Shown here: piece by piece, positions 53,273 through 56,139 of the stretch | How the letters are laid out: each line of letters starts with the position of its first letter | Numbering within the stretch: position 1 is the first letter of the stretch | NCBI GenBank assembly: GCA_963832165.1 | Contig: CAWHTE010000011.1 | Location: 864,001-928,000, forward strand | Direction of reading: 5' to 3' | DNA: 64,000 bases | From: an uncultured delta proteobacterium | GTDB lineage: Bacteria > Myxococcota_A > UBA9160 > SMWR01 | Position numbers and translations under genes: made by a program | Notes under the pieces: model-generated | Database searches by the model: none | Told to the model about the DNA's origin: nothing | The model's input: the letters and a program-made list of their open reading frames with translations, nothing else

Positions 53273-53617
53273 GTGTTCGAGCGCAGATCCGAGCCGCTGA
53301 TCTCCCGCGGCGAATTCGCCGGCCGCATCGCGCGCAGCGTGCTGGCGGGGGCGCTCTTGATCGCAGTCTCGCTGTTCGCGGGAATGATCGGGTACCACGA
53401 GCTCGAACGGCTGTCCTGGCTCGACGCGTTCCTGAACGCGGCGATGCTGCTCGGAGGCATGGGCCCCGTGGCGACTCCTCGGACGGACGGCGGAAAGCTC
53501 TTCGCGGGGCTCTACGCGCTCTACTGCGGCCTGGTCGTGATCATCGCCGCGGGCATCATCCTCGCACCGGCCGCGCACCGGATCCTGCACCGGTTCCATC
53601 TCGAGGATCAGGAGTAG
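53273..53617 (+). CDS. Small 2-TM membrane protein resembling a K+ channel pore domain
   Basis: TM - SWLDAFLNAAMLLGGMGP - T.GGKLF - TM layout. Confidence 0.7.
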   Translation: MFERRSEPLISRGEFAGRIARSVLAGALLIAVSLFAGMIGYHELERLSWLDAFLNAAMLLGGMGPVATPRTDGGKLFAGLYALYCGLVVIIAAGIILAPAAHRILHRFHLEDQE

Positions 53618-53844
53618 GGCGGGAGGAGCCGGAGGCGCCGCAGGTGCCGAGGCGGATCCCGCCTTCGCGGCTCTCAGCGGTCGCTTCTGCCCTCGATCCC
53701 TTGCTTCCGGGGGCTCCTCGCCCACCCCGGAGGACCTCGAATCGCCTTCGGCCTTGGAGGGAGGGATCGATTTCGGACCTCCGTCGCCCGAACGACGCAG
53801 CCGGACGTCTTTCGTGCCCAGTTTCAACCACGGCGCGATCTCCA

Positions 53845-53872
53845 TTGACGTAATGATAAATACAGCTATATT
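53845..53872 (+). promoter_or_regulatory. Sigma70-type promoter of the HUH gene (probably leaderless)
   Basis: TTGACG-N16-TATATT, 6 nt before GTG 53879, in an AT-rich patch. Confidence 0.7.
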
Positions 53873-53878
53873 CAAGAT

Positions 53879-54556
53879 GTGACGAAGCAGATCGAGCTGA
53901 AATTCCGCAGTCACGGCGGCGCGCGTGAAGGCGCGGGACGCAAGCCCGCCTCATCTCGGCCGCCCGTGCATCACGTGAAGCGGCCGAAAGTGCCCAAGGG
54001 CAGTCCGGCCCACGTGACTCTGCGCGTGCGGCGCGATGTGCCGTCTCTGCGCAGCCGCCGCTTCCTCCGCGACTTTCGGGCCCGGCTGAGAAAGGGCTGC
54101 GAGCGCGGCGAGTTCCGCGTCTGCCACTACTCGATCCAGCGCGACCACGTGCATCTGGTGGTCGAAGCCGTTGGGAAGGAAGCGATGGGGCGCGGGATGA
54201 AGTCGGTGGGGATCCGGCTGGCACGGACGGTCAACCGGGTGTTCGGACGGACGGGGCCGGTGCTGTTCGGGCGCTACCACCTGCGCGTGTTGCGCACCCC
54301 GCGCGAGGTGCGGAATGCGCTGGCGTATGTCCTTCTGAACGCGCGCAAGCATTGGCGCCAGAAGAACGGAAGTGCGCCGCCCGTTGTGCTCGATATCGCT
54401 TCATCCGGCGCCTGGTTCGATGGCTGGAAGCGTTCCCCGCCGATGGGAGAGCCGAGCGTTCCCCGCCCGGTGGCGCCACCTCGGTTCTGGCTCTTGAGGG
54501 AAGGGTGGCGACGGCGCGGGTTGGTGGATCCCGCGGAGGTGCCGGGGAGCGCGTAG
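53879..54556 (+). CDS. Y1/HUH transposase (IS200-like, REP-associated tyrosine transposase type)
   Basis: HVTLR, YSIQRDHVHLVVEA (HUH), GRYH, ALAYVLLNARKH (catalytic Tyr), N-terminal GGAREGAGRKP. Confidence 0.88.
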   Translation: MTKQIELKFRSHGGAREGAGRKPASSRPPVHHVKRPKVPKGSPAHVTLRVRRDVPSLRSRRFLRDFRARLRKGCERGEFRVCHYSIQRDHVHLVVEAVGKEAMGRGMKSVGIRLARTVNRVFGRTGPVLFGRYHLRVLRTPREVRNALAYVLLNARKHWRQKNGSAPPVVLDIASSGAWFDGWKRSPPMGEPSVPRPVAPPRFWLLREGWRRRGLVDPAEVPGSA

Positions 54557-54790
54557 CGGGTCCTATTTCCTTTTCGGATTTCGATACCTCCTGCTCATAT
54601 CGGATGGCTCCTTGGGTCGACGGCAAGCGAATCGAACCCCTGCTTCCTCACTCAAGGCAAACCCGCTCTCGTGCGAGGGAAGGAGCCGAGCTCGAGCAAG
54701 TTTCGCTGCGGGTCATAGGGCGGGACGAGCCAAGGCGGGATCCTCCCTGTGTCAGGCGATTGCTAGGCTGCCGCGGGGGCGGATTGAGGG

Positions 54791-55279
54791 ATGGCGGAAA
54801 CGCGCGCGGCCGAGCTGATCCGGACTCTCGAGCTCGCGCCCCATCCCGAGGGCGGCTACTTCCGCGAGATCTGGCGCGCGAGCCACGGTGTCGAGCCGGG
54901 GGACGGGCGCGGGGCGCGCGCGGCGCTCACCGCGATCTACTTCCTGCTTCCCGAGGGCGCGGTGAGCCGCTGGCATCGCGTCGGCTCCGACGAGGTGTGG
55001 CACCACTACGAAGGCGCGCCACTCGAGCTGCTGCTCGTGCCCCCGCGCGAGCACCGCCTCGAGCGGGCTCGCCTGGGTCCACTCGCCGAGGGGCAGGCGC
55101 CCGTGCGCTGCGTCCCGGCGCACTGGTGGCAGGCGGCGCGCTCGCTCGGACCCTACACACTCGTGGGTTGCACCGTAGGGCCCGGCTTCGCATTCGAGGA
55201 CTTCGAGCTGCTGCGCGACCGCGGCGAGCTCGCGGACGCGCTGTGTGACGCGCTGCCCGAAGCCATTCCGTACCGGTGA
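54791..55279 (+). CDS. Cupin superfamily DUF985 protein
   Basis: L.PHPEGGYFRE, TAIYFLL, SRWHRV.SDEVWH, LVGCTVGPGF.FEDF. Confidence 0.92.
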   Translation: MAETRAAELIRTLELAPHPEGGYFREIWRASHGVEPGDGRGARAALTAIYFLLPEGAVSRWHRVGSDEVWHHYEGAPLELLLVPPREHRLERARLGPLAEGQAPVRCVPAHWWQAARSLGPYTLVGCTVGPGFAFEDFELLRDRGELADALCDALPEAIPYR

Positions 55280-55332
55280 AGATGGAAGATGGGATGGCGG
55301 GATGGCGGGATCCGCCTTCGGCTCCTCCCGCC

Positions 55333-56139
55333 CTACGAGATCTCAAACCCCGGTGGCGTCCAGCGCCCGGGCGGCTCCCAGGTGCCCTCGTCGTTCTGCA
55401 CCGTGAGCACGCGCACGCCGTCCGGCGTCACTTCGAGCGTGTGCTCGTACTGCGCGGAGAGGCTGCGGTCGGCCGTGAGCGCGGTCCAGCCGTCGGCCTG
55501 GATCTCGATTCCGGGCGCGCCCGCGTTGATCATCGGCTCGATCGTGAACGTGAGGCCCGCGTGCAGGCGAATGCCCGAGCCCGCAGCGCCGTAGTGGAGC
55601 ACCTGCGGCTCCTCGTGGAAGCGGCGCCCGACGCCGTGTCCGACGAAATCGCGCACCACCGAGAATCCGAGCGGCTCGACGTGCGACTGGATCGCGTGGC
55701 CGATGTCGCCGAGCCGCGCGCCCGGGCGCACGGCCGCGATCGCGCGCCGCTGCGCCTCGAGCGTCGCGCACAGGAGCTGGCGTGCGGGCTCGGCGATCTC
55801 GCCCACGGCGACGGTGGACGCGTTGTCGCCGTGGAAGCCGTCGACGATCAGCGCGACGTCGACGCCCACGATGTCGCCCTGGCGCAGCACCGCCTTGCGG
55901 TCGGGGATGCCGTGGCAGATCACCTCGTTGATCGAGGTGCACACGCTGCGCGGAAATCCGCGATAGCCCAGCGGCGCGGGCGTGGCGCCGTGGCGCTTCG
56001 CGAACTGCACGACGAGATCGTCGAGATCGAGCGTGCTGATGCCGGGTGCGACCTGCGACACCACCCAGGCGAGGCATTCGGCCGAGAGACGCCCCGCCGC
56101 GCGCATCGCGGCGAGCTGCGCATCGTTCTTGAGCGCCAT
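55333..56139 (-). CDS. map: Type I methionyl aminopeptidase
   Basis: CTSINEVICHGIP, GFHGD, GHGVG..FHEEP, EPMIN, SAQYEHT. Confidence 0.96.
   Translation of the reverse strand: MALKNDAQLAAMRAAGRLSAECLAWVVSQVAPGISTLDLDDLVVQFAKRHGATPAPLGYRGFPRSVCTSINEVICHGIPDRKAVLRQGDIVGVDVALIVDGFHGDNASTVAVGEIAEPARQLLCATLEAQRRAIAAVRPGARLGDIGHAIQSHVEPLGFSVVRDFVGHGVGRRFHEEPQVLHYGAAGSGIRLHAGLTFTIEPMINAGAPGIEIQADGWTALTADRSLSAQYEHTLEVTPDGVRVLTVQNDEGTWEPPGRWTPPGFEIS

Follow-up and report, generated by a model that had tools for sequence, protein, structure and literature searches.

The window analyzed here is a 64,000-nt stretch of DNA, in which a gene for a Y1 transposase-like protein is preceded by a gene for a small, channel-like product (53273-53617) and followed by a cupin gene (54791-55279). 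Throughout, G000 denotes the source genome and C4, C6, and C11 its contigs, and all other G and L labels denote other genomes and loci. The features that we refer to are as follows.

53614-53663, plus strand: GTAG-headed hairpin repeat (GTAG-REP) of a rare variant with a long loop; it overlaps the channel-like gene's stop codon
53651-53803, plus strand: left arm, from its gapped alignment to the right arm
53741-53766, plus strand: motif A (the family end motif), 16.0 bits with a matrix from other genomes
53845-53872, plus strand: sigma70-like promoter, TTGACG-N16-TATATT, 10 of 12 matches
53879-54556, plus strand: HUH/Y1 transposase-like gene, 225 aa, GTG start
54480-54505, plus strand: further motif A copy, within the Y1 gene itself, 19.5 bits
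54599-54724, minus strand: right arm, the best match in the window (E = 9.4e-4) to an arm profile made from the other family loci
54644-54669, minus strand: inverted motif A within the right arm, 18.7 bits
54715-54747, plus strand: degenerate GTAG-REP with an ATAG head, in the same orientation as the left REP
55304-55336, minus strand: third REP, beyond the cupin gene
G000:C4:533400-536014: canonical REPtron (L141), with a RAYT gene at 535405-535842 and nine GTAG-REPs

The Y1 protein, its promoter, and its genomic slot

The first-pass annotation of this DNA had described an intact reading frame with an HUH motif and a tyrosine, a near-consensus promoter, and no tnpB or iscB partner, and our analysis agreed on the frame, the promoter, and the lack of a TnpB gene. 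The frame encodes DHVH at residues 89-92 (H90-V-H92), Y150 within YVLLNA, and SS at 175-176; the promoter is a single site where 0.1 would be expected; and the next gene is the cupin gene, with no match to PF07282 (the TnpB family) anywhere in G000, a genome that is 89% complete. The description of the gene as "stand-alone" holds for the lack of a partner but not for the family, of which the same genome has 11 loci. The protein scored 24.4 bits against Pfam Y1_Tnp (cut-off, 23) and has a tail at each end, a basic N-terminal GGxRxGAGRKP that was modeled with low confidence and a C-terminal WLLxxGW. Among 65 homologues, H90, Y150, S176, and W183 were invariant, and H92, N154, S175, GGxRxGAGR, and WLLxxGW were at least 90% conserved. 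The AlphaFold model had a mean pLDDT of 86 (below 50 for residues 1-15), and its best structural match was E. coli TnpA-REP, 4ER8 (Foldseek E = 9.5e-6, Z = 13.2, rmsd of 3.3 Å over 152 aligned residues), whereas IS200-type TnpA matched with a Z of 8-9. In a 48-row core tree, with outgroups labeled by motif, a few outgroup rows being mis-picked ORFs, and no deeper placement drawn, the family was a single clade (100/100) whose branch is long and separate from those of 12 IS200-like proteins, the C4 RAYT, and other sampled Y1 proteins, most of which carry Y---NP. The structural scores and the separate clade uphold the earlier description of the protein as RAYT-like rather than IS200-like. The 225-aa protein had no Pfam match to an HTH domain, and the C terminus of the model consists of short helices only; a PDB sequence search gave no match with the single protein and only ISDra2 (E = 0.09) with the profile. 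A HuH motif and a catalytic tyrosine about 60 aa apart on a Y1 fold, as in the HUH/Y1 superfamily, are both present, and the protein is predicted from its sequence to be a metal-dependent single-stranded DNA nicking and strand-transfer enzyme of this type.

The promoter ends 6 nt ahead of the GTG start, is kept throughout the close clade, and probably gives a leaderless mRNA. We considered the promoter tail as a genome-wide operator and rejected it, as the exact 15-mer occurred only 3 times, always at Y1 genes. The content of 53618-55335, which lies between the channel-like gene and a methionine aminopeptidase gene (map) in convergent orientation, was variable among congeners, with a GNAT gene in G004 and other genes in G005 and G006; G003 was without the upstream block.

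Repeats, inverted arms, and motif A

Ordered inverted blocks in the two flanks had also been reported, and comparison of 53618-53878 with the reverse complement of 54557-54790 against shuffled controls supported that report: 53651-53803 paired with 54746-54601 with a score of 49, which 0 of 2000 dinucleotide shuffles reached (26.1 ± 4.3), and the direct orientation scored 25. All of the blocks are present, but the signal is fragile and composite. The score dropped to 36, reached by 8 of 2000 shuffles, once the REP parts were removed; under wider flanks and stricter gap costs, the locus scored no more than background (28), and scores of at least 60 were obtained for 25 of 111 loci of the family. 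The outer block, GGATCCCGCCTT, is part of two GTAG-REP copies, the left one at 53614-53663 and the right one at 54715-54747, whose 3' half is the outer right block of the earlier description, and the two REPs align better directly (score of 31, 0 of 2000) than inverted (26, 5 of 2000). In the left arm, the arm profile made from the other family loci matched only 53747-53806, and weakly (E = 0.81), and the direct partner copy of the right-end hairpin that close paralogues possess has decayed here.

The source genome holds 116 full GTAG-REP copies in 85 clusters, and its canonical RAYT at G000:C4:535405-535842 (YVHWNP; 200 bits on NF047646, cut-off 80) lies amid nine of them. Given this position, and given that the GTAG-REP pattern was present in only 2 of 31 genomes, the repeat family most likely belongs to the C4 RAYT. 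The outer left hairpin singled out by the first-pass annotation therefore exists but is an ordinary GTAG-REP with a likely cognate RAYT on C4, and the two GTAG-REPs beside the Y1 gene are most likely passengers spread by that separate RAYT. This REP family looks like a recent expansion, given that 40 of the 116 copies are identical and that only the 2 genomes carry it. The long-loop variant (about 4 of 116 copies) or a remnant of it was seen 200-265 nt upstream of three related elements, at 53614-53663, upstream of G000:C11:230281, and at L085:1290-1340, each time just past a stop codon; the L085 remnant falls within the L085 insert. Because a similar remnant lies 200-220 nt upstream of two related elements (G000:C11:230281 and L085), the long-loop REP may be carried along by some element copies. 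REP-like sequence was found at 6 of 117 family loci and, at 80% identity or more in a comparison uncorrected for intergenic bias, near 5 of 17 loci versus 177 of 4000 random windows. As for targeting of REPs by the elements, there were 2 clear cases among the 11 G000 loci, about as many as the density of REPs in intergenic DNA might produce by a rough estimate. A second dispersed repeat occurs in G000 (78 matches of an 11-mer and 121 of a 24-nt pattern), with an 11-nt match at 54696-54706 in the window; 21 of 31 genomes have this repeat, irrespective of whether they carry the Y1 family. As a candidate substrate it was rejected, with 63, 152, and 49 matches in genomes without the Y1 gene and none in G015, which has the gene.

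Long, diverged inverted arms, as the first-pass annotation had suggested, are a real trait of the family, given that four other genomes have homologues flanked by clear, imperfect inverted arms of 60-390 bp, far clearer than those in the window. Among 39 loci from five previously unused genomes, such arms were evident in G261, G116, G150, and G211 and absent from G242. Over the 111 loci with both flanks, scores of at least 60 were reached inverted in 25 and direct in 2; by genome, these 25 comprise G261 (9 of 9), G116 (4 of 7), G150 (3 of 7), G211 (3 of 5), G015 (2 of 4), G006 (1 of 8), G000 (1 of 11), metagenome loci (1 of 16), and named MAG loci (1 of 4). Alignment detected no arms in G242 (0 of 11), G017 (0 of 9), G014 (0 of 7), G013 (0 of 6), G018, or G002. 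The G242 loci L221-L231 and the G017 loci L065-L073 are 11 and 9 diverged copies without detectable arms, and the G017 copies have long flanks in common with one another; these armless copies may have a different end design or be older. Where arms do align, they are imperfect, 52-387 nt long with 73-86% identity, and made up of conserved blocks and diverged spacers with common start positions, and three of the 4 G116 copies share their ends at 1142-1146 nt. Arm mismatches showed no G.T strand bias (197 versus 183, p = 0.50), and thus a panhandle between the arms is not supported; 523 of 903 mismatches were transversions. This pattern would be more in keeping with blocks bound by protein than with a long stem of paired arms.

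The end motif of the family, motif A, is a G-rich stretch of about 26 nt with the consensus gcGTTtgGCTtTGAGGGAAGG. Close homologues have it about 130 nt before the start codon and an inverted copy 75-160 nt past the stop codon, and members of the closest clade have a direct copy ahead of that inverted copy, the two forming a hairpin with a variable loop. The copy at 53741 lies about 134 nt ahead of the start codon, and most paralogues have theirs at 130-154 nt. With a matrix trained on the same flanks, the motif was found upstream forward in 29 of 90 loci, downstream reverse in 36 of 106, upstream reverse in 3 of 90, and downstream forward in 15 of 106, against 21 of 3000 random windows; in the five held-out genomes (39 loci), the corresponding counts were 8, 5, 0, and 2. 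Motif A was considered as a dispersed nonautonomous family and rejected, given that 18 of its 25 genome-wide matches above 16 bits in G000 are at Y1 loci, while shuffled genomes give 2-11 matches. A pattern version had 7 matches in G000, every one at a Y1 locus, and three congeners that lack the gene had 0, 0, and 1; across 14 regions at syntenic congener sites, a search for motif A scars gave one weak match, at no relevant position. The copy inside the gene is spelled by four consecutive rare codons, TTG AGG GAA GGG (L206-G209), of which TTG, AGG, and GAA have usages of 2.4%, 1.3%, and 12.8% in six host genes. It recurs in 9 of the 12 rows that are at least 80% identical, in 12 of 99 overall, and in all five close G000 paralogues, a pattern that is only suggestive because the rows are related, and it is possibly a functional internal or autoregulatory site.

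Copies, spread, and insertion sites of the family

A tblastn search of G000 gave 11 loci, namely the window copy, 4 at 86-89%, and 6 at 53-58% amino acid identity. Of 31 genomes (G000 and 30 relatives), 8 had 6-22 matches, 2 had one weak unrelated match, and 21 were without a family match, including congeners that are 95% and 99% complete; in four congeners the gene was not found. In the phylum sample, 17 of 251 genomes matched at E ≤ 1e-25, and 14 of these 17 had at least 4 matches, with at most 11 candidates scored per genome. A profile search retrieved 2,181 representatives (50% identity clusters) at E ≤ 1e-30, and the look-alikes in the ESM Atlas were Y1_Tnp clusters, most often from Myxococcota where the phylum was known. 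Only 3 partial matches were found on plasmids and only 1 in phages. A 71-row DNA tree, built without duplicates, fragments below 140 codons, and most rows below 56% identity, had starred within-genome clades holding 10 rows of G014, 9 of G006, 4 of G015, and 4 of G000. The proposal that this is a domesticated locus was not borne out, given the 11 copies in G000, the 6-22 matches in seven relatives with none in 21 of the 31 genomes, the within-genome clades, and the empty sites described below.

The reading frame is open in 10 of the 11 G000 copies, and broken copies occur in the family; the paralogue at G000:C6:7437-8113 has a frameshift near codon 41-47, either true decay or an assembly error. 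The closest G000 paralogues have a dS of 0.41-0.70 and a dN/dS of about 0.14, and other sets have a dN/dS of 0.18-0.23. There are no near-identical copies in G000 (53-89% at the amino acid level), and the dS values are unlike those of a recent IS burst; the closest copy pair in five other genomes is about 96% identical.

When 147 foreign flanks were mapped, 33 loci had an orthologous region in G000. Both flanks mapped for 5 loci, of which 3 are gene-bearing inserts facing gaps of 4-11 nt in G000 (L085, 1131 nt versus 11 nt; L001, 1354 versus 4; L112, 2008 versus 9) and 2 face other DNA; the exact borders are unreadable in these filled and empty pairs at their background identity of 80-90%. For the window copy, no clean empty site was found in the congeners compared. 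Congener G004, whose neighboring genes are about 87% identical, has the order epimerase-channel-GNAT-map with no Y1 gene at the window position, and the borders are unreadable there because of the GNAT gene and because the cupin gene is on another contig. An exact duplication of at least 6 nt was seen in 1 of 8 elements with anchored ends and in 1 of 56 mismatched control pairs. Of 13 public sequencing runs listed for the locus, none contained half of its sequence words, and no RNA run was among the matches listed. Four public runs, none spanning the locus, showed no excision junction; they gave two joints (21- and 27-letter sides) that were judged to come from other organisms.

Among the 33 foreign loci, three, L095 included, map no more than 2 kb from the position of a G000 copy (p of about 0.03, for kin that are not independent). 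The same neighborhood was occupied in different species by the window copy and L095, by the C6 copy and L105, and by G000:C11:63444 and L120; L095 has a 75% identical Y1 gene and has the upstream epimerase gene in common with the window locus. A sister relationship was rejected for three of four same-neighborhood pairs (p-AU of 2e-57, 3e-4, and 1e-8; 0.16 for the fourth). Y1 dS exceeded neighbor dS in three cross-species pairs, between which codon bias differs. The shared neighborhoods could be due either to repeated insertion at favored sites or to gene conversion during long residence. L085 and L091 are non-sister elements at one site, where G000 is empty.

Nature of the element

The closest named system is the TIRtron, with its TIRYT, a term introduced in 2013 for tyrosine transposase genes between non-REP inverted repeats, some of them long and gene overlapping, in a survey whose available text proposes assays and reports none (PMC3733652). 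The window family is similar in having a RAYT-like gene between inverted repeats unrelated to GTAG-REPs (25 of 111 inverted versus 2 direct), repeats that, as in the survey text, can reach great length, pair in part with themselves, or extend into the 3' end of the gene, a HuH-to-tyrosine distance of about 60 aa, and an SS motif past the core. At the window locus itself, this layout is represented by motif A at 53741 (plus) and 54669 (minus), with weak arms. According to the classification (PMC6006769, in the parts covered here), 20 of 26 TIRYTs fall in TnpA-Y1 subclass 2.1, all 20 with an HTH tail; the class 2 signature is Y---NP; and subclass 2.1, of which the SS motif after the core is a trait, equals Bertels group 1, the most IS-like of the true RAYTs in the corresponding text of PMC5581495. 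Both the Y---NP signature and the C-terminal HTH/Bac_DnaA_C domain of subclass 2.1 are absent from the window family, which has YVLLNA instead and, unlike TIRYTs, an extra basic N-terminal tail and a WLLxxGW C terminus. The family also stands on its own long branch apart from the sampled Y---NP proteins, lacks a dispersed solo-TIR family, and reaches up to 22 matches per genome, whereas subclass 2.1 has a mean of 1.9 copies in the same part of PMC6006769; GGGGWSAS, found in some TIRs only, was present at 0 of 11 G000 loci. Given the absence of Y---NP and HTH, we regard the window element as TIRtron-like in the way it would work but, judged by the published descriptions, probably not a member of subclass 2.1. 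The window element is an unusual branch of a kind of element that was named in 2013 and has apparently never been tested.

Other classes matched less well. Like RAYTs, the protein has 4ER8 as its best structural match, and many homologues carry the JGI label "RayT"; the family differs from RAYTs in being multicopy and patchy, in having no cognate high-copy REP family flanking the homologues, and in not being inherited vertically as one copy per REP type, and the protein scored 32.4 bits on NF047646 (cut-off, 80) in a genome with a separate canonical RAYT. IS200/IS605 TnpA (IS608 and ISDra2) shares the HUH-Y1 core, the compact one-gene element, and the lack of consistent target duplication, but has two same-strand subterminal hairpins where the window family has inverted arms; the window protein is longer, without TnpB, and its copies are highly diverged. 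Subclass 2.3 of the PMC6006769 text is likewise multicopy (mean, 3.9), diverged (mean, 74.8%), and without REPs, but its proteins of about 325 aa, 55-aa core insertion, YVDLNP, and Chromatiales/Alteromonadales hosts have no counterpart in the window protein. In our literature search, the terms TIRtron and TIRYT led to no papers other than the survey of 2013 and the classification of 2018; a search at the title and abstract level, with ISfinder outside its scope, found no description of this Y1 clade, and six myxobacterial or Bdellovibrio genus names were absent from two supplementary files of PMC6006769.

We consider it likely, at a probability of roughly 0.7, that the window locus is an old copy of a multicopy element of about 1.1-1.2 kb, likely an autonomous IS, whose protein is predicted to recognize the arm motif and to move the unit. 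The basis for this reading is the intact HUH and Tyr residues, the RAYT-like fold, the 11 copies at unrelated sites, the patchy multicopy spread, the within-genome expansions, the discrete ends in younger relatives, the filled and empty pairs, and an end motif largely confined to the surroundings of these genes. The window copy is an eroded example of the family, and given that its protein is intact while its arms are eroded, this copy, with its own gene and promoter, may be immobile itself and yet a source of the enzyme. In the mechanism that we propose, the protein would be expressed from the element's own leaderless promoter and would bind the G-rich motif A blocks in both inverted arms, Tyr150 would nick a single strand at putative cut positions near the outer ends, and the whole unit would move as single strands that are cut through a tyrosine linkage and joined again, with no target duplication apparent. 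By analogy to IS608 and TnpA-REP, to which we liken the chemistry (PMC6006769 and PMC8266576, in the parts cited), a circular single-strand intermediate could be formed. The wider claim, that the clade of 2,181 representatives is an autonomous IS family outside the published subclasses, with long, block-conserved inverted arms in place of same-strand hairpins, no target duplication, revisited neighborhoods, and a motif that one subclade has placed in the gene, is tentative, and we would put it slightly below even odds.

The mobile IS reading is weakened by the old, diverged copies (dS of 0.41-0.70, dN/dS of 0.14), the armless genomes, and the shared positions. A rival view is that these are resident paralogues retained by the host, old, under purifying selection for host benefit, and made to resemble an expansion by gene conversion. 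We judge this unlikely. A dN/dS of 0.14-0.23 at a dS of 0.3-1.2, the open frames of 10 of the 11 G000 copies, the occupation of the same neighborhoods across species by elements whose sisterhood is rejected in three of four pairs, and the 3 of 33 loci within 2 kb, which long residence would also predict, speak for it; however, in four congeners the gene was not found, sharp common ends occur at unrelated sites, empty sites are nearly flush, some copies are broken, and repeated insertion at favored sites accounts equally well for the non-sister pairs. A classical REPtron, in which the Y1 protein spreads GTAG-REPs or another dispersed repeat while the gene itself stays immobile, would explain one REP on either side of the gene, the REP-like sequence near 5 of 17 loci in the uncorrected comparison, and the RAYT-like fold, but seems quite improbable when the C4 RAYT scores 200 bits amid its nine REPs and the window protein about 33, when only 2 of 31 genomes have the REP pattern but 8 have the Y1 family, when the second repeat is abundant without the Y1 gene and not found in G015 with it, and when motif A is concentrated at Y1 loci (18 of 25 strong matches) instead of dispersed.

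The first-pass annotation had raised an undescribed substrate or RNA structure, and the corresponding alternative, in which the arms form a long RNA or single-strand structure that serves as guide or substrate, appears very improbable. The own left-right arm score ranked 1st or 2nd in 5 of 9 G261 elements, and close paralogues have a right-end hairpin, but six flank segments of the window locus folded no better than shuffles (z of -1.3 to +1.7), the arm mismatches described above lack the G.T bias and include 523 transversions among 903, an Rfam search gave 3 chance-level matches (E = 2.8-4.8), there is no TnpB, and a transcript from the element's own promoter would lack the left arm because the promoter is inside it. 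That this is an ordinary IS200/IS605 TnpA copy, as the Y1_Tnp score above cut-off and the multiple copies would allow, can practically be set aside: the protein scored 18.9 bits on NF033573 (cut-off, 55), is 225 aa with YVLLNA versus about 152 aa with Y---Q (Table 1 of PMC6006769), has a 100/100 branch to itself that is separate from the IS200-like clade of 12 rows, and has copies 53-89% identical versus about 99%.

The Y1 transposases characterized in the cited papers, as far as those texts were covered, act on one-strand hairpins, and if the wider claim on the clade of 2,181 representatives is true, the family would add a third way of end recognition for Y1 enzymes beside those of IS200/IS605 and REP/RAYT. 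The family gives testable material in its young, sharp-ended copies (G116), its defined end motif, and its empty sites. Given its many diverged copies under purifying selection, it also bears on RAYT domestication, standing between selfish IS200 and the single-copy RAYT. In L120, an apparent remnant of an acetyltransferase gene, read by eye at 1776-2171, lies ahead of the right motif, and this and the extra DNA within the element limits of the L112 and L001 inserts are possible cargo.
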